DNA of 38,151 bases. Origin: a virus. Below are positions 2,869-37,781 of the stretch, piece by piece. The notes under the pieces were generated by a model that did no database searches, was not told the origin of the DNA, and was given only the letters and a program-made list of their open reading frames with translations. Location: the IMG/VR virus record IMGVR_UViG_3300045988_161139. The stretch is one strand, 5' to 3'. Made by a program: the position numbers and the translations under genes. Within the stretch, counting starts at the first letter, position 1, and every line of letters begins with the position of its first letter.

Positions 2869-3297
2869 ATGTTGACGGGACAAAATAAAATCAATTTAAT
2901 ATTAGATCACGTAGGCATTAAAGCCCCTACGTTTGCTAAACATGTCGGGGTTAAATATCAGCGGATATTAGATATTCAAAACGGAAAGGTTAAAAACATC
3001 TCTGCTGAGGTAGCAAGCCGCATTATAGACGTTTATCCACAGTTCAACATTGAATGGCTTCTCACCGGCGAAGGTGAGATGTTGAATTCCGAAACGAAAG
3101 AACCTAACTCAAACGAAGAAGATATGCAAATGAAAGAATTAATCGCAGCTTTCCGCGAGAACCGTGAGATGTTGGCCGAAGCGTTGGATCAGAACTCGCG
3201 GCTCATCGGCGTGATCGAGCGGATGCAGGGGATAGACCGCTCTGCGACAGGAGTTCAAAAATCCCCCCCCCACGTATTTCGCACAGAAACCGAGTAA
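2869..3297 (+). CDS. XRE-family HTH transcriptional regulator (cI-like repressor candidate)
   Basis: An N-terminal HTH region followed by the motif ...NIEWLLTGEGEML..., which recurs in Bacteroidota phage-repressor-like HTH proteins. It is positioned between the switch region and the integrase-side accessory genes. Confidence 0.6.
   Translation: MLTGQNKINLILDHVGIKAPTFAKHVGVKYQRILDIQNGKVKNISAEVASRIIDVYPQFNIEWLLTGEGEMLNSETKEPNSNEEDMQMKELIAAFRENREMLAEALDQNSRLIGVIERMQGIDRSATGVQKSPPHVFRTETE
3263..3271. repeat. Poly-C homopolymer (9 C) inside the 3' end of the regulator gene
   Basis: aaaatcccccccccacg read directly. Confidence 0.9.
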
Positions 3298-3430
3298 ATT
3301 TCGATTGCAATAAGGAATACGATAAAATCATTTATTTATACAACAAACGGGTAAAACCGAGTTGAAATAGCCGTAGCAACGAAATAAAAAGTTATTATTT
3401 TTGTTGTACTACAATTAAAACACGTTTATC

Positions 3431-3871
3431 ATGTCTTATCCGGTATTAGCGATTGCAAACAAGTTGTTAGCCAGTGCTACCGACTACGACGGCGGAGAAC
3501 TCATGTCGAACATGAAGCTGCAAAAGATGCTTTACTATCAGCAAGGGTATCATTTAGCCGCATTCGGTACTCCCCTGTTCGATGAAGACATTGAAGCGTG
3601 GATGTACGGGCCTGTTGTTCCGTGCGTCTACGACCACTTCAAGAAGTTCGGCGCGGGCGGTATCGAACCCGAAACGGATCAACCTCTCATGCTATCGGAC
3701 GAGGAAGAATCGCTCTTTCAAGATGTGTTTACCGCCTATATTAATTTTTCAGCCTTAGGGCTTATGGAAAAAACGCACGGCGAAACTCCGTGGCGCACGA
3801 CTCCTACGGGTGTCGGTCATGTGATCGGCAAGGATAAGATGCGGGATTTTTTCCACAAGCAGTTAGCGTAA
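3431..3871 (+). CDS. Panacea-domain (DUF4065, SocA/PanA-like) protein, putative antitoxin
   Basis: MSNMKLQKMLYYQQGYHLAAFGTPLFDEDIEAWMYGPVVPCVYDHFKKFG matches the DUF4065/Panacea core (KLQKLLYY ... AW..GPV ... Y). Confidence 0.75.
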   Translation: MSYPVLAIANKLLASATDYDGGELMSNMKLQKMLYYQQGYHLAAFGTPLFDEDIEAWMYGPVVPCVYDHFKKFGAGGIEPETDQPLMLSDEEESLFQDVFTAYINFSALGLMEKTHGETPWRTTPTGVGHVIGKDKMRDFFHKQLA

Positions 3872-3886
3872 CCGGCTGCAACGACA

Positions 3887-4267
3887 ATGAGCGTCAAGAA
3901 ACAAAGTCCGGCACAAAGCTACATCGGGAAGGATAGCCGCATATCCTTCGGATTTGGCCACCTTCACGATGTGAGCTATACCGATTGCAAACAGCCGACT
4001 TTCTTCATCGATTTCTTACAACGGTTGAAGAAGATATGCTGTGTCGATTGGAATACCGTCAATACATCCCAACGGCACGCATTCGGATGGGAGAAGATTT
4101 CGATCGGTTCCATTAAGAGAAAAAAATTGAATTTGACACGCGACGTCGGGTTTCTGATGGCTTTTCGTGCCACTGGAGACAATCATGTATTTTTGGGATT
4201 CCGGGAAGGAAATGTGTTTCAAGTGGTATTTGTCGAATCAAGTTTCGGCGACATTTACAATCATTGA
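3887..4267 (+). CDS. Hypothetical 126-aa protein, candidate toxin partner of the Panacea antitoxin
   Basis: It starts 16 nt after the Panacea gene on the same strand. I recognise no family for it. Confidence 0.5.
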   Translation: MSVKKQSPAQSYIGKDSRISFGFGHLHDVSYTDCKQPTFFIDFLQRLKKICCVDWNTVNTSQRHAFGWEKISIGSIKRKKLNLTRDVGFLMAFRATGDNHVFLGFREGNVFQVVFVESSFGDIYNH

Positions 4268-4317
4268 TACTGAGATTCCGATTTTGATTTTTTTGCCACC
4301 CGTATTGCAATATAATC

Positions 4318-4839
4318 TTGTATAACATGAAATATAATTGCATTATAATTTATTTGCTCCTATTTTTGATTTCGATTAGTGCGATCAGTTGCGAAAAGGA
4401 GACTGTCATCACTATATCCAACGAATCCTTCGAAGAGTATTTTCCGTATCATGAAAATGGGAAATCATATAATGAACCTTTTCGATATGTAGGAGAAGAT
4501 AAGAATGGCGACCCTATATGGAGATCATTATATGAAATTGAGGAATCCATCAATCGGTGTACAATTGAATTTAGTAATAAAAATCATTACATAAATTTTG
4601 GAGAAATTCCGTCTCTGTCCATATTACAAGAATGGAATTATTTAAAAGAGCGACCGCAAGACTATGGAGTTGACGCATTCCATATTGTTGCCTATTTCAC
4701 CTTTACCTATGAAAATATAGATGGGAATTATTATATAAAGAATTACCACTACACTACAGATGCTCGCATATTCGGAATGAACTATCTTGAATTCGATTCT
4801 TCGAACGGAAAAATCGGCAGGTGGGTTCATAAAAAGTAA
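4318..4839 (+). CDS. Lipoprotein (likely start MKYNCIII..., 4327), moron
   Basis: Signal peptide plus lipobox ...LLLFLISISAISCEKE. Strongly AT-rich codon usage, unlike the rest of the genome. Confidence 0.55.
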   Translation: MYNMKYNCIIIYLLLFLISISAISCEKETVITISNESFEEYFPYHENGKSYNEPFRYVGEDKNGDPIWRSLYEIEESINRCTIEFSNKNHYINFGEIPSLSILQEWNYLKERPQDYGVDAFHIVAYFTFTYENIDGNYYIKNYHYTTDARIFGMNYLEFDSSNGKIGRWVHKK

Positions 4840-4900
4840 TGTGATAGATGTGGATGATGGGGTTGTAATGCTATTAATCTAAACTTTAAAACTATAAGAT

Positions 4901-5296
4901 ATGGAAGATTTTTTTGTAATGATGCTAATTGTATGGGCGGTGGGTATCTTGTCAATTATATTATTCTTCAAATTATGGAGGATGACAAATGACATTAAGA
5001 AGATTTGCATTTCTGTGGCAAAAGAACCGCAACGAGGCCGAAATTGGATGGTTTCTACGATGCTGATGAAAGGCGAGTCTCCAGAAATGATAAGTAAATA
5101 TTTAATTGAATCTTTTTCAGAGGATATTCATAGACTATACAAAGTTGGATATACGGAACAGGCGTTTACCCAATATGCAAACGCAAAAATCACCCAATAT
5201 AAAAAGTTATATGAGTTAATTGGAATAGAGATGCCAGATAGTATACAAAATGCAAATACAATCACAAAAGTAAAAACCATTTTTCATCAAGGATGA
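4901..5296 (+). CDS. Small membrane-anchored protein; paralogue of 15721..15972
   Basis: N-terminal MEDFFVMMLIVWAVGILSIILFFKLWRMTNDIKK aligns with MADIYAIIGIVMLIFGILQIVLFFKLWGMTNDVRR of the 15721 gene. Confidence 0.55.
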   Translation: MEDFFVMMLIVWAVGILSIILFFKLWRMTNDIKKICISVAKEPQRGRNWMVSTMLMKGESPEMISKYLIESFSEDIHRLYKVGYTEQAFTQYANAKITQYKKLYELIGIEMPDSIQNANTITKVKTIFHQG

Positions 5297-5357
5297 TAAC
5301 GCTTGTCTCGACTCTCCGGCAGGCTTATCCCTTGCGATAGCATTTTAACAATACCTC

Positions 5358-5945
5358 ATGGAACTGCAACCCATCCAAAGCAAGATATACGAAATCCGGG
5401 GCCAGCGTGTGATGCTGGACTTCGATCTGGCGGAACTCTACCAAGTGGAGACCCGAACACTCAAACAGGCGGTACGACGCAATATTGAGCGTTTCGAAGG
5501 CGACGATTTTATGTTTGAACTCTCGGATAACGAGTATAACGCATTGAAAGACAGAATAAGGTCACAAAATGTGATCTTAGAAATCGACGGACGAGGCAAG
5601 TATCCCAAATATCCGCCCTTTGCCTTTACGGAAATGGGGGTTGCAATGCTTTCGAGCGTGTTGCGCAGTGAGACAGCCATACGGGTAAATAGGGCTATTA
5701 TGCGGGCTTTCGTAGCGATGCGCAACTACATCATGACCACGACGACAGTAACGGCAGAATTGGCCGAAATTCGGGCACGGCTGGCGTTGTTGGAGCAGAC
5801 AGGCAAGGACAACGCCGAAGCGGTCAGCGATCTATCGGAGGATATGCGTAAGGAGCTCGACAATATCTACGAGGCAATTGCGGCACTCTCCGTGAAGGTT
5901 CCGCAGGCACGCAAATCTCCTCAGCCAATCGGGTTCAAAAAATAG
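5358..5945 (+). CDS. ORF6N-domain protein (antirepressor/Bro-N-like)
   Basis: IRGQRVMLDFDLAELYQVETRTLKQAVRRNIERFEGDDFMFELS is the ORF6N signature. The C-terminal half is coiled-coil. Confidence 0.75.
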   Translation: MELQPIQSKIYEIRGQRVMLDFDLAELYQVETRTLKQAVRRNIERFEGDDFMFELSDNEYNALKDRIRSQNVILEIDGRGKYPKYPPFAFTEMGVAMLSSVLRSETAIRVNRAIMRAFVAMRNYIMTTTTVTAELAEIRARLALLEQTGKDNAEAVSDLSEDMRKELDNIYEAIAALSVKVPQARKSPQPIGFKK

Positions 5946-6078
5946 ACAGATTATACTTGATCGATGCAGATGTTATCCTAATGTTGTTCGAATATTTTCG
6001 AATAAATATCGTAAACATTTAGTAAACAGCAAATAAAATAATTGTTTATAACAGCCTTCTAATGAAGAACTCGGACAA
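5946..6078. other. AT-rich intergenic region upstream of the recombinase; candidate attP/regulatory region
   Basis: 133 nt of low GC, with TTCGAAtattTTCGAA and TGTTTATAACA symmetric elements. Its position relative to int (between the int side and the lysis/tail end) matches a lambda-like attP location. This is inference only. Confidence 0.3.
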
Positions 6079-6741
6079 ATGAATATTCTGGGCAACCCTT
6101 TCAGAAACTTGCGCCTCGAAACACCCGCGCCGACGGCCAAACGAGCCATCTCCGCGGAGTCGATACAGCAGATAATCGACTTGCCGCCACTCGCCAACGA
6201 ACGCGCTCGGATGGCGCGGGATTGCTTCCTCCTGTCGTTCGCACTGATGGGGATGAACAGCGCCGATCTGCTGACCTGCCCGCCGGCCAGGAAGGACGAA
6301 ATCGTGTATTTCCGGCAAAAAACCGCATCCCGCCGCACGGACCGTGCAGAAATGCACGTTCGGATAGAGCCGTGCGTCAGCCCTTTGATCGCTCGCTATT
6401 CGGATAAGACGGGGAAACGATTGCTTCACTTCTACCTCCGCTACAAAGATCGCGTGTCATTCAACAAAGCGATCAACAAAGGCCTGAAAGATGTCGGCGA
6501 GGCGATAGGCGTCGATGGCCTGACGTTCTACGCTGCGCGGCACTCCTGGGCAACCATAGCGCGGACTCCCCGAGAGGAGGGCGGAGCCGGACTGGACAAA
6601 TACGTGATTCATGAAGCGTTGAATCACGTTGACACATCCATGAAAGTCACCGATATTTACCTCGTGAAAAACTGGCGTGTCATTTTCGACGCCAACAAAG
6701 CCGTAATGAATCTTTTCGATTGGAGCGGAATCGGGAAATAA
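6079..6741 (+). CDS. Tyrosine site-specific recombinase/integrase (catalytic domain only, 220 aa)
   Basis: ...YAARHSWATIAR... (box II H-x-x-R) and ...HEALNHVDTSMKVTDIYLV (H...Y) are catalytic motifs of tyrosine recombinases. No N-terminal core-binding domain is encoded upstream. Confidence 0.7.
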   Translation: MNILGNPFRNLRLETPAPTAKRAISAESIQQIIDLPPLANERARMARDCFLLSFALMGMNSADLLTCPPARKDEIVYFRQKTASRRTDRAEMHVRIEPCVSPLIARYSDKTGKRLLHFYLRYKDRVSFNKAINKGLKDVGEAIGVDGLTFYAARHSWATIARTPREEGGAGLDKYVIHEALNHVDTSMKVTDIYLVKNWRVIFDANKAVMNLFDWSGIGK

Positions 6742-12029: not shown

Positions 12030-12371
12030 TCATTCGGTTTTGGGTAGATCGCCCAGACGCAGGAAATCGTGTACGTTGGACGGATGTTGTCTGAGATGAT
12101 GCCGAGCCGCTGCGGCCGTCAGATTCAAGTGTGTGTAGAGTTTTCCGCGATAGCGGATCACGATGCCGGATTTGAGCATGTAACCGCCGTTTGCGCCTTT
12201 CTGCTCCTTCCGCAAATAGGAGGCGATCATCGCGGCCGCATCACGGAACCGGTTGGGACACCGGCCGCTGAAATCGGAAAGCATCGGACGCCCGAACACT
12301 TCCCGATAATCCGATTCGATCCGCTTCTTCTCTTCCATGCACAGAGAGGTGCCCGATGCGCACCTCTCCAT
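12030..12371 (-). CDS. Hypothetical small protein (C-terminal portion of track ORF 12030..12935, from the internal Met)
   Basis: MERCASGTSLCMEEKKRIESDYREVFGRPML... has normal composition and starts 26 nt after the stop of the 12398..12979 gene. The upstream part of the 301-aa track ORF is Arg-rich shadow-frame sequence. Confidence 0.4.
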   Translation of the reverse strand: MERCASGTSLCMEEKKRIESDYREVFGRPMLSDFSGRCPNRFRDAAAMIASYLRKEQKGANGGYMLKSGIVIRYRGKLYTHLNLTAAAARHHLRQHPSNVHDFLRLGDLPKTE

Positions 12372-12397
12372 GTACCAGTCCAACGGTTGCATACCCC

Positions 12398-12979
12398 CTA
12401 CTCGGCCGGAGTACACAATGCTTCCAGCGCGGCGCGAGAAGCGTCGATACCGCCGGCGTCGAAGAAGATCTGCGGCGTCGGTGCGTTCTGCTCGATCAGG
12501 TCGCCGCCCCAACCTCCGTTGTAGCCGTCGCCGTACTTGTCGAGCGTCGCGTTCTGCATCGATGCGCCCTGTTCGTAGCCGATCACACAGAACGCCTGGC
12601 TGCCGTCCGCACCCTTCGCCTTGTTCTCGTAGATAGCGACCCAGTCCTCGTTCTTGAACGCCTCGATGTTCTGCGAGTTCGCGGGGCTGTCGGCCAGCAT
12701 ACGCAGCGGCAGCGTCTTGTTGATGGCGATGCCGATTTCGGCGTTCTGATCCTCGTAGATCAGCCCGTTGTAGGGCGTTTTGGAGGGAATCGAGAACCGA
12801 TAGGCCCTCTTGCCGGATTTGAGTGCGATCTTGGTGATCTTCGGTTTGGTGTAGGTCGTCGCCGATTCGTCCAGATCGGACTTCTTGATAAGATAGGCAA
12901 TCTTCTCGACGCCCACCCCATAGACCGTGTTGCAATCTTGCAGGATATCGCCTGCCAGATCATTGATACATTCTGCCAT
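12398..12979 (-). CDS. Tail structural protein, hypothetical
   Basis: 193 aa, first gene after the tape measure. It is preceded by the conserved promoter-like element. Confidence 0.5.
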   Translation of the reverse strand: MAECINDLAGDILQDCNTVYGVGVEKIAYLIKKSDLDESATTYTKPKITKIALKSGKRAYRFSIPSKTPYNGLIYEDQNAEIGIAINKTLPLRMLADSPANSQNIEAFKNEDWVAIYENKAKGADGSQAFCVIGYEQGASMQNATLDKYGDGYNGGWGGDLIEQNAPTPQIFFDAGGIDASRAALEALCTPAE

Positions 12980-13020
12980 TGTTTTTTTTATTTATTATAA
13001 AAGGATTAATTCGTGTTTGA

Positions 13021-13075
13021 AGCAAATATAGGATACGCAGGAAGGGTTCCTCCGAACTTTTCGCTGTTTTTTTAC
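13021..13075 (-). promoter_or_regulatory. Conserved late-operon element, copy 1 (-7 box TATATTTGCTTCAAA plus upstream AGCGAAAAGTTCGGAGGAACCC block, minus-strand sense)
   Basis: Plus strand: tttgaagcaaatataggatacgcaggaagggttcctccgaacttttcgctgttttttt. It is near-identical to 24585..24643. Confidence 0.55.
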
Positions 13076-15663
13076 CTTTTGCGTCCGGCGTAGCGCGCCG
13101 TCTCATCCTGCACCTTGACCCGCCGCTGACCGTTGTTTATATCCCTGACCGTCACGACAGGGTTCGGAAGCCGGCGCATCACGCGCTCGAACATCTGTTC
13201 CATCTGACGCATCCCCGAACTCTTCTCCGGAAGATGCCGCGTCGGAATGGCGTTGCCGCCGCTCGACACGTTCATCATCGAGAGCACCGGCCCCCAATCC
13301 ACGACCGCACGGGCCGTCATCACGGCCTCGCCGTTGGACAGCCGCGCAGGGATGCTGTCGCTCGTACCCGTGCCGGGGCCGGTCACAAGACCGCCGCGGG
13401 CAAATTTCGGCGTAGCCGGTTTCTCGGCTTGATTCAAAACTTGGTACGCCTGCGCAATAGCGGAAAGGACAGCCGCAATCGCAGCCGCCATTTTGATCGG
13501 ACGCGCGGCATTGCCTGCAATCGCTTCGGAGATCGCCAACGCCGTATTGACACCGATATTGAACAGCGCCAGCAGTTTTGCGAACTCGGCAAACTCCGCA
13601 TTATCTTCGGCCAGCGTATTGAACAGATTGGCTGCCGCACCGCTGATCGTCGACATCGCCGTCAATGTGGTGTTTAGCTGATATTCAGCCTGCTCTTTGG
13701 TAATTCTTGCCGTCTCCAATTTCGCATCCTGAACCGCCATTTCACCATTGAGAACGGCCGTCTGGTATGCAACATCCGAATCATACAGAGATTCTTTCGT
13801 TGCTTCGTCCATACTCAGCAGTGCCTGGTATTTATCCATAGCGATGCGAAGCTCCTCCTGCGCGATCGCCCGCTGGGCGGAGAGACGTTTCCCATTATCC
13901 TCGCTTTTCAGGTCGGAATAGTTCTCGTTCTTGACTTGCGCACGAGCCAGGGCATCCATCTGGGCATCCATACCGAGGCGGGCCCTGATGCGCGCTTCCT
14001 CACGCGCCAACTCCTTGCGCAACGCCTCCTCGCTGTATTTTTCCTCGACGGATATTCGGTCTTTCTGATACTTTTCGTCCAGAGCCAATATCCGTTTGTT
14101 CAGCGTCTCTTTCTCTTGAAGGAGCCACGCCGCCTGCTCTCCTTCGGCGGTTTTCAGCAGGATGTCGATCTCGCTGATTCGCTTTTCTGCCGATTTTTTC
14201 GCAACCGAGTTTTGCTCAGAAATGCTTTTTAACTCGCTCTCTTTCGTCTTGGTACGCATCTGCTGGACGAGTTGGAAATAATCCTTCTCCGCTTTGAGGG
14301 CCGCATCTTTCGCTTCCTTGATGGCTTTGGCGCGGGTTTTGGCGGTTTGGGTTGCTTTTGCATCGGTTTCATTCAGACGTTCTTGCAATTCCCGCAGAGC
14401 GGAATTTTCCTGAGCATTTAGCCGTTTTAACCCCGCTTCCATTTCTGCAAGTTTGTTGTTTGTCTCAACTGAATTCTTAGTCGGTTCGGCACTTAATTTC
14501 GCGATCTCGAAATCCAACTGGGCGATGTCCTTTTTGATTCTGAACATTTCCCGCGTCTTGTCTATTGCTTCCTGTGCATATTTTGCACGTTCCGCATCCG
14601 AGTTTTTCAATTTATCGTTCGATTTCAGTCGCGCCTCCGCTATTTCCGCTTCGAGTTCTGCAATCCTTACGACGCCTTCCCTGTATTTGATGTTTCGTTC
14701 TTCCTGTTTAGCGGCTAACTCGTTGAATGTTTTCTGTAATTTATCGGCTTCTTCTCTCTGGCTTGTAAAAAGCCTAGGAGTCTTATAAGGGCCTACCTTC
14801 ACAAAATCCTTCAGATAGATTTTTAACTTTGTCCAGAAAATCTTAAATTTCGATGTCGTATTGACGATCGATTCGCCCATCCTGTCTATGGTATTGGTGT
14901 AGGCTGCATTCCACGCATCGGCTGCGGACATCGCCCTCTGATATTTATAAAACAACTCTTCGTTCTCCTGAATACGGGCATTTACTTCCCGAATGGAAAA
15001 CGATAGCGCCTGATAGCTGGCATAGATAGCAGCAATAGCAGCTCCGATAGGTGTAGCAATGAATGCCGCCATCTGTTTAACAAGAGACCCAATGGCACCT
15101 GCTGCACCCTTAATGACATTCGTAATGCCTCCCGCATTTTGAGCCGTTTGCGCAAGTTGTAGCAAGAAATTGTTTCCAACAGGAAGCGTGTTCTGAATGG
15201 CATTCTCATAATTGCCGACATTCGAACGATAATCGCCGATTGCGGCCTCCGCCTCTTTAACGGCGTCACGCTGGGCTTTGATATGATCTGCTAACGCTTT
15301 CCCGCTGGCGCTTTCGCGTTCGGCGGCCGATAACCTTCCATACTGCGCAATAAGGCCGTTCAGATTCGCGCGTAGTTGATTCAAAGACCCGTCAAGCTCT
15401 TTTTCGACCTTAATGTTATTTTGAATCTCTTTTTCATACTGTCTTTGTTCATCCGTCAAGGCTTTTGTGGTAGACTTCAATTCTAATTGTGCCTTTTTAT
15501 AATCGGACAGCGAAATCTGGCCGGTCTCGTACTCTTTTTTGAGGTCGGACAAAATCTTCTTATTGTCTTCAATCGCTTCGTTGGCTTTTACCCAACCCTG
15601 AACGAGTTCCTTATAATTGAAGCGAATATTAATAATCTTATCGATCGAATCTTGTGTAGCCAT
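13072..15663 (-). CDS. Tail tape measure protein
   Basis: 863 aa. Long coiled-coil/alpha-helical K/E/Q/A-rich repeats and a Gly-rich C-terminus (GGLVTGPGTGTSDSIP). Position fits a tail module. Confidence 0.8.
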   Translation of the reverse strand: MATQDSIDKIINIRFNYKELVQGWVKANEAIEDNKKILSDLKKEYETGQISLSDYKKAQLELKSTTKALTDEQRQYEKEIQNNIKVEKELDGSLNQLRANLNGLIAQYGRLSAAERESASGKALADHIKAQRDAVKEAEAAIGDYRSNVGNYENAIQNTLPVGNNFLLQLAQTAQNAGGITNVIKGAAGAIGSLVKQMAAFIATPIGAAIAAIYASYQALSFSIREVNARIQENEELFYKYQRAMSAADAWNAAYTNTIDRMGESIVNTTSKFKIFWTKLKIYLKDFVKVGPYKTPRLFTSQREEADKLQKTFNELAAKQEERNIKYREGVVRIAELEAEIAEARLKSNDKLKNSDAERAKYAQEAIDKTREMFRIKKDIAQLDFEIAKLSAEPTKNSVETNNKLAEMEAGLKRLNAQENSALRELQERLNETDAKATQTAKTRAKAIKEAKDAALKAEKDYFQLVQQMRTKTKESELKSISEQNSVAKKSAEKRISEIDILLKTAEGEQAAWLLQEKETLNKRILALDEKYQKDRISVEEKYSEEALRKELAREEARIRARLGMDAQMDALARAQVKNENYSDLKSEDNGKRLSAQRAIAQEELRIAMDKYQALLSMDEATKESLYDSDVAYQTAVLNGEMAVQDAKLETARITKEQAEYQLNTTLTAMSTISGAAANLFNTLAEDNAEFAEFAKLLALFNIGVNTALAISEAIAGNAARPIKMAAAIAAVLSAIAQAYQVLNQAEKPATPKFARGGLVTGPGTGTSDSIPARLSNGEAVMTARAVVDWGPVLSMMNVSSGGNAIPTRHLPEKSSGMRQMEQMFERVMRRLPNPVVTVRDINNGQRRVKVQDETARYAGRKR

Positions 15664-15720
15664 AATTTTATAGTTTCTTGTTTTTGCGTATCTTTGTTCT
15701 CAACCAAATCTCAAATCATC

Positions 15721-15972
15721 ATGGCTGACATCTATGCAATCATCGGAATCGTAATGCTGATATTCGGCATTCTGCAAATCGTTCTTTTCTTCAAACTCTG
15801 GGGAATGACGAACGATGTACGGCGACTTACGGAACATTTTCTGAAATCAGATGAAAATGAGAATATAAACCTTCCTTTTAAAGAAAAAGATGGATCCGGC
15901 GATCTCATAGTAGGCATCGTGATTACTCTTATCGGTATTTTAATCATTGCTATTCTATTTTTTACAGCTTGA
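15721..15972 (+). CDS. Small two-TM membrane protein on the opposite strand within the tail module; paralogue of 4901..5296
   Basis: MADIYAIIGIVMLIFGILQIVLFFKLWGMTNDVRRLTEHFLK...LIVGIVITLIGILIIAILFFTA. Internal Met of track ORF 15487..15972. The upstream part of that ORF is antisense to the tape measure gene. Confidence 0.55.
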   Translation: MADIYAIIGIVMLIFGILQIVLFFKLWGMTNDVRRLTEHFLKSDENENINLPFKEKDGSGDLIVGIVITLIGILIIAILFFTA

Positions 15973-18031
15973 TCAATTTGCACTCGCATATACCGTCCTC
16001 ACCGGTCGTGACGGAGTAGATGGCGAAATAGCATCCGTACACGTCGAGGTAAACCCGCCGCGTATAGTCGAGATTGCAGATGTCGGCCACGGTCAGTTTG
16101 ACGTAGACCGTAATCATGCGGAACTTTTTCAGGATCCGCTGGTAGGCTGCATACCGTTGCGCCACGATACCCTCCGACCCGCCGAAATACATCGTGCGGG
16201 GGAACAGGCCGTGCCTGTAACGACCTACCGTACCGTTTCCGTCTTCAATCGTCGTATTCACATCGGCAAGAATACGGGCAGAAGGAGCAGAGTAATTTAC
16301 CTCCTTTGCTCCGTTGACTGTCTGTTCCTCATAGCAAGGCACAAAAGCGAATGGCCTATCAGGGCGATCCGGATTCCAACCTGTTCTATTGGTCGAAGCC
16401 GAGAAATCCAACGATACCAATTCGTTCTCCCGCTCGATGTTCTCGTTGTCGATGGAGATGATGCCCTGCGTGTTCAACATCTCGGCGTCCTCGTCGTTGT
16501 CGTAGTCGAGCGTGTTGGTCTGGGCATAATCCCCCATCGTGAACTCCGTCCCCTCCGGCCGCCAGATTTCGCCCCGATCGTTCAGAATCACTTTGCGGCT
16601 CCAATCCTGAATCGTTGCGTCGAGATGACTGTCGACGATTCGTCTGTCGGTTTGCGTGCTCGGCGTCCGGTTGTCTCCCGAATCGACGATGCGATAGTCG
16701 TAGTCGATCGTGTCCGTCGAATTATAGAACTGATCGGGCGACATCATGTGGATCGTATTATTATCCGAACTGTCCGGATAGGCGAAAAGTCCGGCCATTG
16801 TCATCAATGCCGACAGGAACTCCGCGTGCGTCATATCCGGCAGATTCTCGGCTATCGGAAACGGAGAGGGGAATTGGATGTCGTCGAAATGGGGCGTGAT
16901 GATGAATCGGGCAGCGATCGTTTGCTCCTGTTCGACTGGATAGAGGTATTTTATCTGCCAGTAAACATAATCCGTGTCTTGGACGTCGATTTCCAAATCT
17001 TTCACGATATCGGGACCGATTCCAAATGTCGCTAAGCCATTGCTTATTGTACCTCTACGTTCGAAAAGGAGTTTGCGAGTTTGGGACTCGTTGGTAGTGT
17101 TAACTCCGTAAAGAGCGATAGATGGTGATACATTTCCGAATTTATTCCCTTTAATTCCGACAGGGTTGTCGTCGTAACTTAAAATGGAAACTGAAATCTT
17201 TTCCAAATTTGAAACGTTGAAATTACGATAACGAGACCCCGTGTCACTCCCTGTTCCCGTATCAATTTCAATATCCCACAACCCCCGTTTGTCGGCCGTG
17301 ATATTCTCCTGCTTGAATTCGATATTATTGATGTATTGTAACGTGCTATATAAATATCCGGAACTTGCCTCGAACCGATCCGAATACCAACTGTCGGGCC
17401 CCGAGTTTTTCGACACGAGCGGAACGATCATCGGATGTTTGTCACTGGTTTGGCTCAAACGGGTTATATTCTCTATCGTGATACCGTGATATTTCTGTAT
17501 GGCATCCAAGATCGCGGATACTTGTACGGACGGATGCGAATAATTGATATTACGTCCTGCCCCGAAATCAATCTGGATAAATCCTGCCAATGCTGTATCG
17601 GAGGGCAATGCCCACGGCACCTCTTTGTTCCACTCGACATAATCCGCTCCTGCCACCTCGATGATCTGCTCGCGCAGATCGCGCAGCGAAGCGTCGAACA
17701 ACGGCTGGAAGTTGTCGATGTTGCCCCACACGAGTGTGATGTTGATCGTGTCGGTTACGTCCGTAACCATCGCATACCCCCGCGTGAAGACCGGAAAGCC
17801 GCCGAGGTAGTACGCTGCCGAATGCTTCCCGTATGCCGCCGAATCGTCCAAGATGTCGATGCGGTCGATCAGACCGAAGGCCTTGCGGTTGCGGGGCGTC
17901 AGCGGCAGATTGATCTCCGCGCTGCGGTTGCTCTGGATCACGTCGAGATCGTTGAAGACCGGCGACTGGAAGATCAGCGACGGCGTATCTTCCAGATCGC
18001 ACAACTGACCGTTTATGTAGAGCTCCTTCGT
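15962..18031 (-). CDS. Large virion structural protein (approximately 689 aa from MTKELYING...), function unknown
   Basis: Track ORF 15962..18187. The first 52 codons overlap the upstream gene and are Arg-rich. A start at 18031 gives an ATGA overlap with the stop of 18031..19002. Confidence 0.55.
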   Translation of the reverse strand, partial: TKELYINGQLCDLEDTPSLIFQSPVFNDLDVIQSNRSAEINLPLTPRNRKAFGLIDRIDILDDSAAYGKHSAAYYLGGFPVFTRGYAMVTDVTDTINITLVWGNIDNFQPLFDASLRDLREQIIEVAGADYVEWNKEVPWALPSDTALAGFIQIDFGAGRNINYSHPSVQVSAILDAIQKYHGITIENITRLSQTSDKHPMIVPLVSKNSGPDSWYSDRFEASSGYLYSTLQYINNIEFKQENITADKRGLWDIEIDTGTGSDTGSRYRNFNVSNLEKISVSILSYDDNPVGIKGNKFGNVSPSIALYGVNTTNESQTRKLLFERRGTISNGLATFGIGPDIVKDLEIDVQDTDYVYWQIKYLYPVEQEQTIAARFIITPHFDDIQFPSPFPIAENLPDMTHAEFLSALMTMAGLFAYPDSSDNNTIHMMSPDQFYNSTDTIDYDYRIVDSGDNRTPSTQTDRRIVDSHLDATIQDWSRKVILNDRGEIWRPEGTEFTMGDYAQTNTLDYDNDEDAEMLNTQGIISIDNENIERENELVSLDFSASTNRTGWNPDRPDRPFAFVPCYEEQTVNGAKEVNYSAPSARILADVNTTIEDGNGTVGRYRHGLFPRTMYFGGSEGIVAQRYAAYQRILKKFRMITVYVKLTVADICNLDYTRRVYLDVYGCYFAIYSVTTGEDGICECKLIKL

Positions 18032-19002
18032 CATAGCGTCAAGTGCTTTATCGAAAGTTCTACCACGCAGTCCTGCATGCAGGCATTCGTCCGCGAGATG
18101 TCGCCGTCTTCGACATAGGCGTCGATCCACACCTTCCGCCGGGCGTCGTACAGCTGCACCTCCCGTCCGGAGAGAATCGATGCGCACAGGTCGAACAGTT
18201 CACGGTCGACCAGTCCGCTATGGAGCGTATGGGTCGTGGTCGCCGTGATCGTGCGGTGGCGTTCGGGTGTCAGTTTCTCGGAGAGCGTTTCGAAGGTCTC
18301 GTCTTCGGATACGTCGTCGACGCGCTCGGTCGGATGCCAGAGAAAGTAACGCATCAATCCCGTTGCATCGCGCCAGCGCACGAACGATCCGCTGTCGCAA
18401 GGATTCACCACGACCGTCAGACGCGCGCTCTTCACGGCACCGGTCGTGCCGCCCGTCGAGACGATCAACTGCCGCTCGCCGCCTCCGAATTCGCGGAAGA
18501 AGGTCATCGGAAGGGAGAACACGGGATCGACACGCGAATAGACCTCCCGCCGGCCGCTGTCGGCATCGGTGAAAGCGAAGTCCTGCATGGCGCCCGTATA
18601 GGAGTTGACGAGAATCTGCTCGCTGTAATCGAACGCCGGAAAGACCACGATCTTCGACGGCTGGGGCCAGCTGATCGGGGTATCGGCCTGCGCATTGTTC
18701 GTCATCGCGCGCGCCGACGCCCCTTTGAGCAGATAGAGCGGCGACGAGGCGATCGCCTGCCCGTCTACTTCGAGGCTGATCGTCGTTTGCGCATTCCCGT
18801 CCTGTGCGATGATTTCGAACAGATCGTCCATCGGGAATACGGCCGAACCGTTGATGATCGAACGCACCAACGTATAGCCGCCGACTTTGACAACGGCCGC
18901 ATTGTATGTCGGCGCTTCGCTGACTCCGACCGTATTGTAGTTTCTCGCCAGCGAAATGGCGGGTGTTAATCTATATTTAGGCATAATCACTGATTGTTTC
19001 AT
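18031..19002 (-). CDS. Structural protein (candidate major tail protein), hypothetical
   Basis: 323-aa ORF in the tail module. No motif recognised. Confidence 0.45.
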   Translation of the reverse strand: MKQSVIMPKYRLTPAISLARNYNTVGVSEAPTYNAAVVKVGGYTLVRSIINGSAVFPMDDLFEIIAQDGNAQTTISLEVDGQAIASSPLYLLKGASARAMTNNAQADTPISWPQPSKIVVFPAFDYSEQILVNSYTGAMQDFAFTDADSGRREVYSRVDPVFSLPMTFFREFGGGERQLIVSTGGTTGAVKSARLTVVVNPCDSGSFVRWRDATGLMRYFLWHPTERVDDVSEDETFETLSEKLTPERHRTITATTTHTLHSGLVDRELFDLCASILSGREVQLYDARRKVWIDAYVEDGDISRTNACMQDCVVELSIKHLTL

Positions 19003-22626: not shown

Positions 22627-23322
22627 TCAGTTTTTGATTTGACCTAATTTTTCGAATACCGAACTGCGTGAAGTGAGTGGCGCGCGGGCCGGCTCGGCTT
22701 TGAACATCGACAGTATTCTGCTGTGTACTTTTTCGTATTCATCGGGCGCGGTCTCCCGTAATGCCTTGACATATCGTTCCATGTCGTCCAAGGCTTTCAT
22801 GTCGCCGATATACTCCGTGTGCTCGTTGGCGCCGAAGGTGACGACCGAAATCTCGTGCAGAATAATCTCCTTCACGATCAGGCAGTCGAGATCGGGATCG
22901 TAATCGCATTTGTCCCATACATACCGATAGCCGATCGAGAACTGGTTGAGCACCCCTTCGTGCATCTGCACCCATGCGCGGCGAGCGTCCGGCACGGCAT
23001 CGAAATCCGAGAGCTGCACCGTGGCGTATCCGCCGTCGTCCTTCTCCTCGATCGACAGGATACGGCCGATCGGGTTCTTCGTCTCGTGCTGCCACAGGAA
23101 TTGTATCTTCCGGTTCGTCGCAGACGCCGGCCCGCGCTCCTGAATACTCTTGCTGATGCAACCCTTCATCAGCATGTCGCCGTCCGAATCGACCGTTCCG
23201 AACGAACAGAACTTCACGAGAATGATGTGTTTCTCCTCGTCCACGACATCGGCCTTTAATATCGGCGCTTGCTTGAAAGCCCCGCCGCGGCTCATGACTT
23301 TTTTATACAGTAGTTTGTCCAT
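22627..23322 (-). CDS. Prohead protease (HK97/S78 family)
   Basis: ...FSIGYRYVWDK...IILHEISVVTFGANEHT... resembles the Peptidase_S78 core. It lies between the portal and the MCP. Confidence 0.7.
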   Translation of the reverse strand: MDKLLYKKVMSRGGAFKQAPILKADVVDEEKHIILVKFCSFGTVDSDGDMLMKGCISKSIQERGPASATNRKIQFLWQHETKNPIGRILSIEEKDDGGYATVQLSDFDAVPDARRAWVQMHEGVLNQFSIGYRYVWDKCDYDPDLDCLIVKEIILHEISVVTFGANEHTEYIGDMKALDDMERYVKALRETAPDEYEKVHSRILSMFKAEPARAPLTSRSSVFEKLGQIKN

Positions 23323-24593
23323 TATTCCAGAATGTTTGCAATGATGTTTTTCCCCTGTTGCTCGGTAATGAGACCGGAGGCGATCGCGTTGCTGGCAGCC
23401 GTCACGGCCGCCGTCAGCGAGTCGGCATACATCCGCTTCGCTTCCTGGAAGATCGACAGGTGATCGAAATAGGGAACGATGCGGAATCCATCGAACCCGT
23501 GCGCCGCGTTCAATACCTCCGATATTCGCTCTGCATCCGGTTTGATCGCATCGTTGTACAATTTGACCTCGGCCGCCGTAAGATTCGCATAGGTCGTACC
23601 TTCGGTGTCGATCAGTACATACGGCACTTGATAGGCATCGGCGATCTCCTTCTTGGCATTGCGCTGCACCTCCGTGAGATTCATGTCCTTCATGTTGGCC
23701 GAAATCTGCACGAAAGCAGCCTTCAATCCGGTCACGATGTACTTATATTGGCCCTTCATCACGCCGTATCGCCGCAGGGCCGCTTGTGCCTGCTCCCGAT
23801 CCTCCTTGTTCTCCGGCAACACGGATGTCCGGAAATCCTCGCTATTCAACGAGATGATACCCAATGCCCCTCTGTTGATGATGAGTTCGTTCTGCGCCTC
23901 GAATGACGACACGAAAGGATTGACGGCGTTCTGCAAGGCTGACAGACGCGACTGCGATGCTCCGAAGATATTCGGATTATAGGCCGAATCCCGCACGACG
24001 AACATTTGATCCCGATCGACACGAATTTGATAATCGTTGATCGAAACCATATAATAATCGATCTGCGGATCGGGCCGGAAACCGGTGAATTCGGAGGTCG
24101 TCACCTCCTGAACAAGCGGATTCGGAATCACGTAGAGTTCGTAGGCCGTGGGCACACCGACCGGCTCCCAGCGAAGAATATAGGCTTTTCCGTAAATATC
24201 CTTGAAGGCTTCGATCATCGCCGTGAAATCTTCGATCGTTTGAAAGTCATTCGGATGCTTCCACCTGTTCAGTTCCTCCGTGCGACCTGCGACCTGGCGA
24301 GCGTCGTCCGACGGATCGACAGCCCACCAGCGGGCGTTGCGAATTGCCGCGGATTTCTTGGTCACGACCGAAAACAACGCGCTGCACCGAGCGTAAGCGA
24401 TAGTCTGTCCGGCAACGGTGTCGCAGTCGATCGTACTACCGCTGCCCAATCCCATTGCCGAGAGAAAATCGCGCACAGAGACGAACCGCTGTTCCTCCGC
24501 TGTCGGAGTTCCGCACTCCGATTTCGTCGTCAAGTCCTGACTCTTACTTCGCCACTTCAAGCTGAATCTCATTGCACATAGCCTTTGAAGCAA
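23322..24593 (-). CDS. Portal protein
   Basis: 423 aa, directly after the large terminase and before the protease. It is preceded by the conserved promoter-like element. Confidence 0.65.
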   Translation of the reverse strand: MLQRLCAMRFSLKWRSKSQDLTTKSECGTPTAEEQRFVSVRDFLSAMGLGSGSTIDCDTVAGQTIAYARCSALFSVVTKKSAAIRNARWWAVDPSDDARQVAGRTEELNRWKHPNDFQTIEDFTAMIEAFKDIYGKAYILRWEPVGVPTAYELYVIPNPLVQEVTTSEFTGFRPDPQIDYYMVSINDYQIRVDRDQMFVVRDSAYNPNIFGASQSRLSALQNAVNPFVSSFEAQNELIINRGALGIISLNSEDFRTSVLPENKEDREQAQAALRRYGVMKGQYKYIVTGLKAAFVQISANMKDMNLTEVQRNAKKEIADAYQVPYVLIDTEGTTYANLTAAEVKLYNDAIKPDAERISEVLNAAHGFDGFRIVPYFDHLSIFQEAKRMYADSLTAAVTAASNAIASGLITEQQGKNIIANILE

Positions 24594-24643
24594 ATGTAAG
24601 GGCGATAAAAGAGGGTTCTCCGAACTTTTCGCTGTTTTTTCAT
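24585..24643 (-). promoter_or_regulatory. Conserved late-operon element, copy 2 (-7 box TACATTTGCTTCAAA plus AGCGAAAAGTTCGGAGAACCC block)
   Basis: Plus strand: tttgaagcaaatgtaagggcgataaaagagggttctccgaacttttcgctgttttttcat. It lies between terL and the portal gene. Confidence 0.55.
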
Positions 24644-25905
24644 TTTCGGCGGTTGCAGACCCAATAGAGATACTCCATTACAGCGTATCGGGCCGCATCC
24701 CACAAGTGATTGAATTTGTCGATCGGCTGGTTGATCGTAATGCCGTTCACCGAATCCCACACATAGGAATTGGCCTCGGTTTGGAAATTACGGCTGCGGA
24801 CGATATGGAGGCGGAACGATTTGACCATGTGAATTCCGTCCGTTACGGAACCGGCATATTTCTTCGCCTTCACCACGCTGAGCCCGCGCAGCAGCAGGCC
24901 GTCGACCATCGATTCGGGATTTTTAGCGTATTTGTCCGCCGAGTCGGCGAATATGGGCATCCGCCCGACTGTCCCCTCTATCGCATCATAGAGCAAGGCC
25001 GGATCGGAGCAGGGTGCATAAAACTCTTCCTTCATGTATAGATCAAGCCCCCGAAGCCCCAGACGGACGAGCGCCGTAGGATCGTTCGTAAATCCGAAGT
25101 CGAGGCCGAACACGACCCTTTCCAGGTCGGACGGAAATTCATCGATCCAGTCGATATTCGGATAGACAAGGCCCTCTTTCGCCGCACGGATTCCCAATCC
25201 ATAGACTTTCCATCGCCACTCGTCGGCCGTGCCCGCAGCAATGTTCGCCGGTGTAGGTTCATAGGATTCGATCTCTCGTATGACCCCAGGCGGGCAGAAC
25301 GGATTGTCTTTGTATGTCGTGTGCGTAAAATAGGTGTGCGGCTGCCCTTCCAGTTCGAAGGCCCAATGTTCGGTATATTTGGGATTCCAGTCGCCGATGA
25401 CCATCGTCGTGCAGCGCATCGTGATATTTTTGTACTGCTGCTTCGAGATGTCGTCCAGCATCTCGTTGATGTAGATGATGTCGCAATCGTATCCTTCACG
25501 GCTATCCATTCTGTCCAATCCGCGGAAATGGATCACGGAGTTGTTGATATAGTAGTCGGGATGTTGATTCTCGCTGCGCATCGCATCGGGATCGTAGACG
25601 CCGCGCAGGGTCAGTTTCTTGCGGAAATCGGCAAGGGTGATCTCCTTGCAGGCCTGCAACGTATTTCGATATACGAAGATATTGAGCGGGGATAGTGCGA
25701 GCGTACAGATGTCGTACAGAAAATCGAAGGCATCGTAGGTCTTCCCCGAACGGCTCGACCCTTCATTAAAAATCTTCAACACCGCATCCCGTTCCCTGTA
25801 CTGCATGTACCGATACATGAGGTAACGATACACTTTCCCCCGATAGGTGCGGATGTCAGGCAGACGATGCATCGGCAGGCGGTGTTTTTTCGATCGACAA
25901 CGCAT
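24640..25905 (-). CDS. Terminase large subunit (PBSX/Terminase_3-like); true start probably at an internal Met (25872 or 25818)
   Basis: Walker A ...NEGSSRSGKT... and nuclease-domain acidic motif ...VFGLDFGFTNDPTALV... Confidence 0.8.
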   Translation of the reverse strand: MRCRSKKHRLPMHRLPDIRTYRGKVYRYLMYRYMQYRERDAVLKIFNEGSSRSGKTYDAFDFLYDICTLALSPLNIFVYRNTLQACKEITLADFRKKLTLRGVYDPDAMRSENQHPDYYINNSVIHFRGLDRMDSREGYDCDIIYINEMLDDISKQQYKNITMRCTTMVIGDWNPKYTEHWAFELEGQPHTYFTHTTYKDNPFCPPGVIREIESYEPTPANIAAGTADEWRWKVYGLGIRAAKEGLVYPNIDWIDEFPSDLERVVFGLDFGFTNDPTALVRLGLRGLDLYMKEEFYAPCSDPALLYDAIEGTVGRMPIFADSADKYAKNPESMVDGLLLRGLSVVKAKKYAGSVTDGIHMVKSFRLHIVRSRNFQTEANSYVWDSVNGITINQPIDKFNHLWDAARYAVMEYLYWVCNRRK

Positions 25906-26446
25906 CCTCCGCGTCTATTTGAATGACGACGGGAGCGACGGCAGGATTTTCTATCTTTCCGGATAGTTTCACCTCCTTCGGCGCTGCGTAACCCAACATG
26001 TTCATGATGCTGTCGAGACTCTTCTGCTTGTCGTAGCACTCGATCTTCACGAACTCCTCGACAATCTCATCGCCATTCGAAGCGATCCGTTTGACCTGTT
26101 TGGTATTGATCGACTTTATACATGCCTTCTCGTCGTCCGTAAGCGACTCGAACTCTTTAAGCGACATCCAGCCGTTACGAATGCGGGTCGCATCCGAAAA
26201 GGCGATCTTCTGGTGCTCGCGGATGATCTGCAAGGCCGAGATGCCCGCAGCCTCGGCAAGGTGAGTTTTCAGATATTCGATCCTCGCTGCAACCTCACTG
26301 TTTTGTAATAGCAGATAGGCATTATTCCATACCGTGTTATCGCTCATGTTCGAACATCTGTAAGCATAGCGATATGCCTCGGACGCATTACCGCATTCGA
26401 GGTACTTATTGCAAAACTTTTCCTGTTTGATCGTGAGCTTGCCCAT
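25856..26446 (-). CDS. Terminase small subunit (Terminase_2-like)
   Basis: MGKLTIKQEKFCNKYLECGNASEAYRYAYRCSNMSDNTVWNNAYLLLQNSEVAARIEYLK matches the Terminase_2 N-terminal signature (LT.KQ..F...Y...GNA..A...AGY). Confidence 0.75.
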   Translation of the reverse strand: MGKLTIKQEKFCNKYLECGNASEAYRYAYRCSNMSDNTVWNNAYLLLQNSEVAARIEYLKTHLAEAAGISALQIIREHQKIAFSDATRIRNGWMSLKEFESLTDDEKACIKSINTKQVKRIASNGDEIVEEFVKIECYDKQKSLDSIMNMLGYAAPKEVKLSGKIENPAVAPVVIQIDAEDALSIEKTPPADASSA

Positions 26447-26475
26447 ATATGCAAAGATCGCCTATCGGGGAGACG

Positions 26476-26503
26476 ATTCTTTCAACTTTTCGCTCTTTTT
26501 CAT
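26476..26503 (-). promoter_or_regulatory. Partial third copy of the conserved element (AGCGAAAAGTTGAAAGAAT block) about 30 nt upstream of the terS start
   Basis: Plus strand: attctttcaacttttcgctctttttcat. Confidence 0.4.
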
Positions 26504-26727
26504 TGCCCGATATAGCGGTATTGTAGGTGTGCATGTAAATCATGCCACTCTTCGATCAGTCGGGGATGCCGTTCGACAAATGCCTCCCACTCGATGCGGC
26601 GCAGATAGATCCGCCCGTTGCGGACGACTGTGCCGAGTGTCCGATCCACTCGAATCGATTTCCATATCCAACGTGTCGAAATGCCGTACTCATCGGCTGC
26701 GGCCTGAATTGAGATAAAACGGTTCAT
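26500..26727 (-). CDS. Small HTH (MerR/Xis-like, HTH_17) DNA-binding protein upstream of terS
   Basis: ...AADEYGISTRWIWKSI...GRIYLRRIEWEAFV... Confidence 0.55.
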   Translation of the reverse strand: MNRFISIQAAADEYGISTRWIWKSIRVDRTLGTVVRNGRIYLRRIEWEAFVERHPRLIEEWHDLHAHLQYRYIGQ

Positions 26728-26796
26728 TGCAAATCCCGAATTAATTACTACCTTTGTTCTTGGGTGAGGGGTGATCTTTCGGGATCGCCTCTTTTT

Positions 26797-27075
26797 CTAT
26801 TTTTCCATCTCTATCAAATAATCCATATTTGACCAACCGCCAGCAGCTTTAACAGACGCGACGCACGTTTCCATATATCTATCTGGAATCGGATATAAAA
26901 GCTGATCTTGACGATAGCCATAACTCGACCCGCCTATAAACCGGATATTTCCCCACTCATTACGAGTCAATATGTACTCGATTAATTCCCTAACGGTATA
27001 TTCTCGATCGAATATTACATCATAAGGCGCGGTCTCATCCCCGCCTATTTTATCTGTTCGTCTGTATTTTATCAT
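26797..27075 (-). CDS. Hypothetical protein
   Basis: 92-aa ORF in a coupled operon. Confidence 0.4.
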   Translation of the reverse strand: MIKYRRTDKIGGDETAPYDVIFDREYTVRELIEYILTRNEWGNIRFIGGSSYGYRQDQLLYPIPDRYMETCVASVKAAGGWSNMDYLIEMEK

Positions 27076-37745: not shown

Positions 37746-37760
37746 CAAATATACGAATTC
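37746..37760 (-). promoter_or_regulatory. Early promoter -7 box (minus strand CGTATATTTGCAATG), same core as the switch-region boxes
   Basis: Plus-strand cattgcaaatatacg is the reverse complement of TATATTTGCAATG. It points into the replication module. Confidence 0.45.
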
Positions 37761-37781
37761 ATTTTGAATTTGCAAAAAAAA

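Follow-up and report, generated by a model that had tools for sequence, protein, structure and literature searches.

Genome organization around the repeated element

The DNA analyzed here, referred to as the window, is a stretch of 38,151 nucleotides from a virus (IMG/VR record IMGVR_UViG_3300045988_161139). Positions 1-55 of the window are repeated at 38084-38138, and the window is therefore regarded as a phage genome, about 38.08 kb long, that closes into a circle. The overlap of its ends (1-76 and 38063-38138) consists of 21-nt tandem units (ACTCCTCGTAGTCCCTCCGCA). One long train of minus-strand genes runs from a canonical promoter at 37753 through the recombination and replication genes, and its early genes include KilA-N, a Rad52-like protein, a replication initiator, a DnaC-like loader and VRR-NUC, as well as a pentapeptide-repeat protein, a methyltransferase/radical-SAM ORF and YopX. 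The train then continues through terS, terL, portal, protease, capsid, tail genes, the tape measure and the distal tail genes. A low-GC accessory region is located on the plus strand at 0.1-6.7 kb.

The minus strand of the window contains exactly three copies of one element, at 13071..13016, 24639..24584 and 26500..26447, which are referred to here as copies A, B and C. A previous reading, made from the sequence alone, had placed three copies at these sites on this strand, and both the sequence and a weight-matrix scan confirmed them. The genes that it had assigned to the sites (terS, portal and a post-tape-measure gene) also hold in PHROGs matches. Genes were curated by homology, with PHROGs used for identities, because long antisense ORFs made a greedy ORF-based gene call unusable. 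The genes at the three sites are as follows:

26500..26727, minus strand: p75, an ORF of 75 aa with a predicted winged helix-turn-helix; candidate factor for the upstream block of the element
25856..26446, minus strand: terS (phrog_51, E 5e-27); the gene served by copy C
24640-25905, minus strand: terL (PHROGs)
23322..24572, minus strand: portal (phrog_12); the first gene served by copy B
13072-15663, minus strand: tape measure (PHROGs)
12398..12979, minus strand: post-tape-measure gene of 193 aa (phrog_21217, E 3e-21); the first gene served by copy A

For the portal gene, relatives have a 416-aa gene call from the same start. A 301-aa ORF with a TTG start (12030-12935, minus strand) overlaps the 193-aa post-tape-measure gene in another frame; its real start is probably internal, near 12390, since relatives call a gene of 102-120 aa there.

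Structure of the three copies

Each copy is a cassette of about 56 bp, in which a 22-bp block (A5-N-AGCGAAAAGTT-SRRAG) is followed by a 19-bp spacer and a Bacteroidota -7 box. The box takes the forms TATATTTGC and TACATTTGC, and GATCTTTGC before terS. The parts of the copies, all on the minus strand, are as follows:

13016..13071: copy A, between the tape-measure stop codon (TAA 13074-13072) and the post-tape-measure gene
Parts of copy A: block 13071..13050 (AAAAACAGCGAAAAGTTCGGAG), spacer 13049..13031, -7 box 13030..13023 (TATATTTG); minus-strand read TAA-AAAAACAGCGAAAAGTTCGGAG-gaacccttcctgcgtatcc-TATATTTG-cttcaaa
24584..24639: copy B, occupying the 67-nt gap between terL and portal
Parts of copy B: block 24639..24618, spacer 24617..24599, -7 box 24598..24591 (TACATTTG); minus-strand read TGA-AAAAACAGCGAAAAGTTCGGAG-aaccctcttttatcgccct-TACATTTG-cttcaaa
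26447..26500: copy C, occupying the 53-nt gap between the 75-aa ORF (stop TGA 26502-26500) and terS
Parts of copy C: block 26500..26479 (AAAAAGAGCGAAAAGTTGAAAG), spacer 26478..26460, -7-like box 26459..26452 (GATCTTTG); minus-strand read TG(A)AAAAGAGCGAAAAGTTGAAAG-aatcgtctccccgataggc-GATCTTTG-catatATG

All three copies are intergenic, lie on the sense strand, point at the downstream gene and are the last thing before its start codon. They begin at, or 0-1 nt past, the stop codon of the upstream gene, which is the tape measure for copy A, terL for copy B and the 75-aa ORF for copy C. The intergenic gaps are essentially filled by the cassettes, entirely so between terL and portal and between p75 and terS. 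Between neighbouring sites the distances are 1.9 and 11.6 kb. In every copy, 28 nt separate AGCGAAAAGTT from TTTG, and this includes copy C, which had previously been described as partial; that copy is instead complete, with the same geometry and with the -7-like box GATCTTTG in place. A distance of about 45 nt from box to start codon had also been proposed, and this fits the ATG of the post-tape-measure gene (43 nt) but not the portal ATG at 24572, which is 18 nt from its box. In copy C, the end of the box is 5 nt from the terS ATG (26446).

The box of copy C (GATCTTTG, 26452-26459, minus strand) contains a GATC that is kept in every lineage except that of the related locus L299, and relatives encode N6-adenine or N4-cytosine methyltransferases. 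The predicted promoter at copy C could therefore be methylation-sensitive.

Copy number and departure from chance

The sequence AGCGAAAAGTT occurs exactly three times in the window (13055-13065, 24623-24633 and 26484-26494), and a search of the window for relatives with one mismatch found none. Copies A and B match exactly over 23 nt, and no longer dispersed repeat exists in the genome; in 30 shuffled sequences, the longest repeats reached 14-18 nt. With a weight matrix built on the two conserved blocks, the three sites scored 49-51 bits and the next-best site in the window scored 12 bits, while the best site per shuffle had a mean of 6.5 bits and a maximum of 14.8 bits (n = 20). This gap in score indicates that there are exactly three copies, without weaker relatives. 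The box motif TAnnTTTG is itself enriched, with 24 sites in the window against 12.7 +/- 3.5 expected, a count that none of 100 shuffles matched.

Conservation in related phage lineages

Look-ups in IMG/VR and in assemblies recovered many near-identical genomes and several diverged lineages. Thirteen versions of the element, from the window and from loci L204, L282, L287, L290, L294, L299 and L300, were aligned without gaps. Their consensus is AaAAA-N-aGcgaAAAGTt-NNN-aG, then 19 nt, then nA-NN-TTTGc. The spacers differ in sequence in all 13 versions and are exactly 19 nt long in all 13. The motif search in related phages that the sequence-only reading had proposed thus showed that block, box and spacing are kept across several lineages. 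The pattern is sharpest in the comparison of copy A with its counterpart in L204: 21 of 22 positions are identical in the block, 2 of 19 in the spacer, 8 of 8 in the box and 10 of 30 downstream. This uneven divergence, in which the blocks are kept and the spacers are free, indicates selection. Two constrained blocks at a fixed distance with free sequence between them form an arrangement that is promoter-like; neither a structured RNA nor a recombination joint or mobile repeat would look this way.

Orthologues of copy A in L204, L290 and L294 retain block, box and spacing with unrelated spacers, and copy B is kept in L282, L287 and L300. Copy C in L299 reads AGCACAAAGTT-N24-CATATTTG-ccgt-ATG. 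The block itself varies in two lineages, with GTGTGAAAAGTG in that of L290 and AGCACAAAGTT in that of L299; in L290, a variant block GTGTGAAAAGTGGAGAG is combined with the box TAACTTTG at the same spacing. These loci differ in their overall relatedness to the window. For L204 and L282, terL is 93% and p75 83% identical; p75 is 83% identical in L287 and L300 and 63% identical in L299; and the post-tape-measure protein is 85% and 78% identical in L290 and L294.

In relatives whose terL is 65-67% identical, the portal gene overlaps terL (ATGA) and the element is absent; p75 is likewise absent from the group at 65%. Upstream of terS, the relatives at 65-67% have ordinary promoters after a terminator. 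A weight-matrix scan of the relatives with 65% terL identity, and of the chromosomal islands described below, found zero copies of the element. These element-free relatives with overlapping terL and portal mark the cassette as an innovation of this lineage. The likeness of copies A and B extends slightly past the constrained block (CGGAG(G)AACCCT), which suggests that the cassette was spread by duplication. Searches of IMG/VR with the exact 17-mer and with a relaxed 15-base pattern gave, outside the lineage, only chance matches in coding sequences. GenBank phages gave no Megablast match to the 15-kb late region and the best terL protein match was below 42% identity, so that an annotated close relative does not exist.

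The same junction was also found in a more distant relative, L293, whose post-tape-measure protein is 48% identical. There the junction (L293:4728-4887) is 160 nt long and contains a hairpin followed by CATATTTG, without the AGCGAAAAGTT block. An internal promoter at the post-tape-measure junction may be common, with upstream signals that vary.

Proposed promoter grammar and predicted start sites

The housekeeping promoter consensus in Bacteroidota (sigma-ABfr) is -33 TTTG / -7 TAnnTTTG (PMC6847099, PMC2483708). The -7 element is numbered from T-12 and A-11 to T-8 through G-5, it has no G at -10 or -9, and the start site lies 4-5 nt past the box (PMC6847099). When the G of TTTG in the cassettes is set to -5, the box occupies -12 to -5, the AG lies at -33/-32, GAAAAGT at -44 to -38 and the A-run at -53 to -49, so that the upstream block spans about -53 to -32.

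The consensus TAnnTTTG is matched by copy A (TATATTTG), by copy B (TACATTTG) and by orthologues (TAACTTTG). Copies A and B carry a perfect TAHHTTTG with C as the next base, as do the canonical promoters of the genome. T-12 is absent from copy C (GATCTTTG), which has a G at this nearly invariant position, and from L299 (CATATTTG). At the N19 position, where a -33 TTG or TTTG would be expected, the triplets in the three copies are GAG, GAG and AAG. For six of the genome's canonical promoters, TTG is found upstream of the box at 19 bp (2208, 2281, 2287, 26749 and 37753) or at 20 bp (4361). One of these served as the comparison:

37746..37775, minus strand: canonical host-type promoter (TTG-N19-TATATTTGC) that heads the early operon of this strand

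The 22-bp block is located where the missing -33 TTG should be, which fits a site for an extra factor. Retention of the host -7 signal with a specific block in the place of the -33 signal is how activator-dependent or sigma-appropriated phage promoters are arranged. The missing TTG is no proof that an activator is needed, since the -33 element is already weak in Flavobacterium johnsoniae (PMC6847099). An E. coli-type sigma-70 match at 13021..12994 was disregarded because such matches are irrelevant in Bacteroidota.

From this numbering, the following start sites are predicted:

13018/13017 (A), minus strand: predicted start for copy A, with a leader of about 39 nt
24586/24585 (A), minus strand: predicted start for copy B, which leaves about 14 nt of leader before the portal ATG (24572)
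26447/26446, minus strand: predicted start for copy C, on or beside the A of the terS ATG

Because the predicted start of copy C coincides with the A of the ATG, the sequence points to a leaderless terS mRNA, with transcription that would initiate at the A of the AUG. Although box and ATG are separated by 4 nt in L299 and by 5 nt in the window, the terS ATG has its A at the predicted start in both.

The p75 protein and related chromosomal islands

Pfam and PHROGs scans of about 40 ORFs revealed no sigma factor and no known late activator family. The p75 gene lies between a hairpin (26766-26793) and copy C. The AlphaFold2 model of p75 has a pLDDT of 91.6 and predicts a beta-alpha-alpha-beta-beta arrangement with two C-terminal helices. 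The best Foldseek matches were BldC, the Xis of mycobacteriophage Pukovnik, RacA and the Tn916 Xis, with probabilities of 0.98-1.0 and E values of only 0.05-0.7. In Pfam, HTH_23 and HTH_17 were below threshold; HTH_17 was matched by 3 of the 14 alignment members, with a best E value of 2e-4, under the curated cut-off. A match to Mor was found for one alignment member only (E 0.11), and a PDB sequence search with p75 was empty. For p75, AlpA/Q-type antitermination of P. aeruginosa was weighed as an analogue and set aside, as AlpA has eight helices and its site lies between -35 and -10 (PMC9371919).

p75 was found in every element-bearing lineage for which the terS region was recovered, and it travels with the late module in lineages that have wholly different early modules. 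One evolutionary event could by itself account for p75 and the element being present or absent together. p75 is a candidate for the cognate activator, a role with which the evidence is compatible; the predicted fold would equally suit an excisionase or a terminase accessory protein.

Close homologues of p75 also occur in chromosomal islands of about 14 kb (L295-L298, for example L297:1-13300), located in contigs of 69-305 kb, with LepA, UbiA and catalase among the host genes on their flanks. The islands encode an integrase, HTH_17, Lin1244_N, DnaB (a replication module), Fic/HTH_3 and WYL_2. They also carry copies of the phage 741-aa and tape-measure genes that are 93-97% identical, and a p75 copy that is 91% identical in amino acids (98.9% in nucleotides). 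The segments of the window matched by the islands are 13138-14346, 15682-18039 and 26534-26718. Neither terminase or capsid genes nor the promoter element was found in the islands, which may be phage satellites. That a close p75 copy occurs there without the element counts against p75 as the factor for the block.

Proposed mechanism and alternative explanations

Our data indicate that the cassette is very likely a promoter. The earlier interpretation of the element as a promoter stands on the two conserved blocks, the fixed distance and free spacer in 13 versions, and the TAnnTTTGC box; the further labels that it had given the element, namely late, dedicated and activator-binding, we infer from sequence. 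In line with the activator-dependent late promoter class of phages (P2 Ogr, Mu C and T4 MotA type), the three copies lie before terS, portal and the post-tape-measure gene, with the block at -53 to -32 and a spacing that is invariant in the 13 versions. We propose, with moderate confidence, that the cassettes are three internal late promoters used by host sigma-A with the help of a factor that binds at about -53 to -32. The three sequences would be paralogous copies of one lineage-specific promoter cassette, whose -7 box would be read by host sigma-A RNA polymerase. The normal -33 TTG contact is missing and would be replaced by a sequence-specific factor on the block. The most likely candidate for this factor is the phage protein p75, a predicted Xis/BldC-like winged helix encoded directly upstream of copy C. 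As the factor would substitute for the -33 contact, the promoters would fire only after it had been made. The cassettes would split the packaging and structural region into terS-terL, a unit from portal to the tape measure, and the tail-tip genes onward; between its portal and tape-measure ends, the copy B unit would include the protease, capsid and tail genes. Under this proposal, we infer where transcription starts, that it is late, that it needs a factor and which factor this is.

A serious rival, although we consider it rather unlikely, is that the cassettes are factor-independent host sigma-A promoters in which the block acts as an UP-like element, with its A-tracts touched by the C-terminal domains of alpha. 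Under this reading, the cassettes would constitutively boost a long operon from within and would not form a regulated late class. What makes this rival serious is the weakness of the -33 element in at least one Bacteroidota species, F. johnsoniae (PMC6847099). It also agrees with the phasing of the A-tracts, since A5 at -53 to -49 and AAAA at -43 to -40 are centred at about -51 and -41, one helical turn apart, and with the fact that the scanned proteins include no sigma factor or known activator family. However, a generic A/T-rich UP element needs none of the G/C positions (aGcG, GT and the AG at -33/-32) that are conserved in nearly every lineage. The block is also found nowhere else in the genome, canonical promoters included, and those use TTG at N19. 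It is improbable that the block is a protein site for a DNA transaction other than transcription, such as packaging by terminase and p75 or a recombination linker, with an incidental -7 box. In favour of this reading, the predicted fold of p75 is that of Xis and of terminase-accessory proteins with a winged helix (weak Foldseek matches to 7lw0 and 6hn7), copy C adjoins terS, and lineages differ in a mosaic way to both sides of copy A and of p75. Neither a pac site nor a recombination joint, however, would predict the fixed 19 bp to TAnnTTTGC in 13 versions with unrelated spacers. In addition, the three sites, separated by 1.9 and 11.6 kb, all run along the direction of transcription, and each is the last feature before a start codon.

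The remaining alternatives are less probable again. The likeness of copies A and B past the constrained block would suit a functionless small selfish or recently duplicated repeat of the MITE or REP kind, and copy B does look like an insertion when compared with the relatives in which terL and portal overlap; but the copies lack terminal inverted repeats, have a single orientation and are all intergenic, and their uneven divergence indicates selection. The sequence-only reading had named a small mobile repeat at random positions as the scenario that would count against a promoter. In IMG/VR the full element is confined to this phage lineage, and the scenario was rejected; we regard a selfish repeat as very improbable. 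More remote still is an action as RNA, in the form of a terminator, attenuator, processing site or structured leader. A likeness to a hairpin with a T-run is seen on the plus (antisense) strand, but in copy A only (fold z = -2.2); copies B and C lack this hairpin, folding of the sense strands does not surpass that of shuffles (z = -1.5, -0.5, -0.8 and +0.7) and reveals no common structure, and, if the boxes are real, the conserved block lies mostly upstream of the predicted start. A scan for intrinsic terminators found zero sense-strand sites at any copy, and Rfam gave no family at the element, with only two tRNA matches elsewhere in the window. Programmed frameshifting or read-through at the A-run past the stop codons was ruled out, as the downstream frames are unconserved.

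Comparison with known promoter systems

Compared with Bacteroidota housekeeping promoters, the cassettes are similar in the TAHHTTTG box followed by C in copies A and B, and their position and orientation relative to the genes fit. They differ in that they lack the -33 TTG/TTTG and have a 22-bp block at -53 to -32, and copy C has a G at -12.

In phage P2 and its satellite P4, several late operons share a site upstream of a weak -35, and this site is used by a small phage activator, Ogr, and by its satellite homologue, delta. Ogr itself has a zinc finger and recognises a dyad whose centre lies near -55. The window resembles this system in its repeated late-operon site and in the existence of islands (L295-L298) with a 91%-identical p75. 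In contrast, the block has no dyad common to all copies, and p75 is a predicted winged helix. By analogy with P2 and P4, p75 might be a late activator, and the putative satellite islands in Alistipes chromosomes might use their own p75 to switch on or retime the three late promoters of a helper phage, although we consider this doubtful. If true, a trans-activation circuit in the manner of P2 and P4 would be described for the first time in phages of Bacteroidota.

The middle promoters of T4, which have a MotA box, and the Mor and C promoters of Mu keep a host -10-type element and replace the -35-type element with a phage box at a fixed spacing. The cassettes are similar in that the host -7 element is kept, the phage block lies at a fixed spacing and the promoter class is repeated in the genome, but no protein resembling AsiA, MotA, Mor or C was detected here. 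For RinA, ArpU and LtrC of Gram-positive siphoviruses, a small regulator gene is located just upstream of terS and its target promoter lies before terS. The p75 gene is likewise directly upstream of terS with a cassette before terS. However, there is no sequence or family match to these regulators, three targets are present here as opposed to one, and the host phylum and promoter grammar differ. The Xis2c and Xis2d proteins of Bacteroides CTnDOT are Xis-type proteins that double as transcription activators, and the CTnDOT Xis-type proteins and BldC bind A/T-containing direct repeats upstream of promoters. p75, with its predicted small MerR/Xis-like winged-helix fold, is similar to these proteins; judged by that fold, it could also simply be an excisionase.

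Temperate Bacteroidales phages dominate the human gut virome, and the control of their transcription is almost uncharted. In the literature searched, no late-promoter class has been defined for them. A repeated phage late promoter is of a familiar kind and the type of mechanism is conventional; it is the lineage-specific version with Bacteroidota grammar that is new. The element offers a compact promoter grammar, in which a -7 box is combined with a specific block in place of the -33 element, together with three predicted start sites, one of them leaderless, and a short candidate regulator. If confirmed, it would aid the annotation of operons in related gut prophages, and it could provide an inducible phage-specific pair of promoter and regulator for engineering in Bacteroidales.

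Host assignment and additional features of the genome

The host is a member of the Bacteroidota, as indicated by a homologue of p75 annotated from Alistipes communis (Bacteroidota) and by the integrases of relatives, and the virus is probably a gut phage of Alistipes. A terL search of genome contigs gave only a distant match in Saprospiraceae. Relatives of the phage have Bacteroidales-type integrases (Phage_int_SAM_5) and S24 repressors; neither an integrase nor an S24 repressor was recognisable in this genome. The plus-strand region at 2869-6741 contains a SocA_Panacea gene and a 220-aa ORF where L277, L278 and L281 have Peptidase_S24 and Phage_int_SAM_5. A look-up of ORF 775-1392 found nothing on record.

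Between the genes of 92 aa and 75 aa, on the plus strand at 26723-26803, there is an antisense canonical promoter (TTG-N19-TACCTTTG) that is followed 10 nt on by a 12-bp hairpin and a T-run. From this region an RNA some 40 nt long would be made; alternatively, it may serve as a bidirectional terminator. Conservation of the hairpin and CAAAGGTAGT extends to L285, where they lie upstream of a 61% homologue.

A tRNA-Gln (anticodon TTG) at 727-798 on the minus strand was called by both ARAGORN and Rfam, and a tRNA-like match of 120 nt at 1030-1149 on the same strand, called by Rfam only (40.9 bits), may be interrupted or degenerate. About 31 tandem units of 15 nt are located at 31083-32021 (minus strand) in the gene for the pentapeptide-repeat protein, which has a DUF5758 C-terminal domain; relatives have one or two copies of this gene, of differing lengths. 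The ORF at 29600-31081 (minus strand) matches a DNA methyltransferase PHROG in its N-terminal half and a radical-SAM PHROG in its C-terminal half, where CxxxCxxC is present, and it may be a DNA-modification enzyme.
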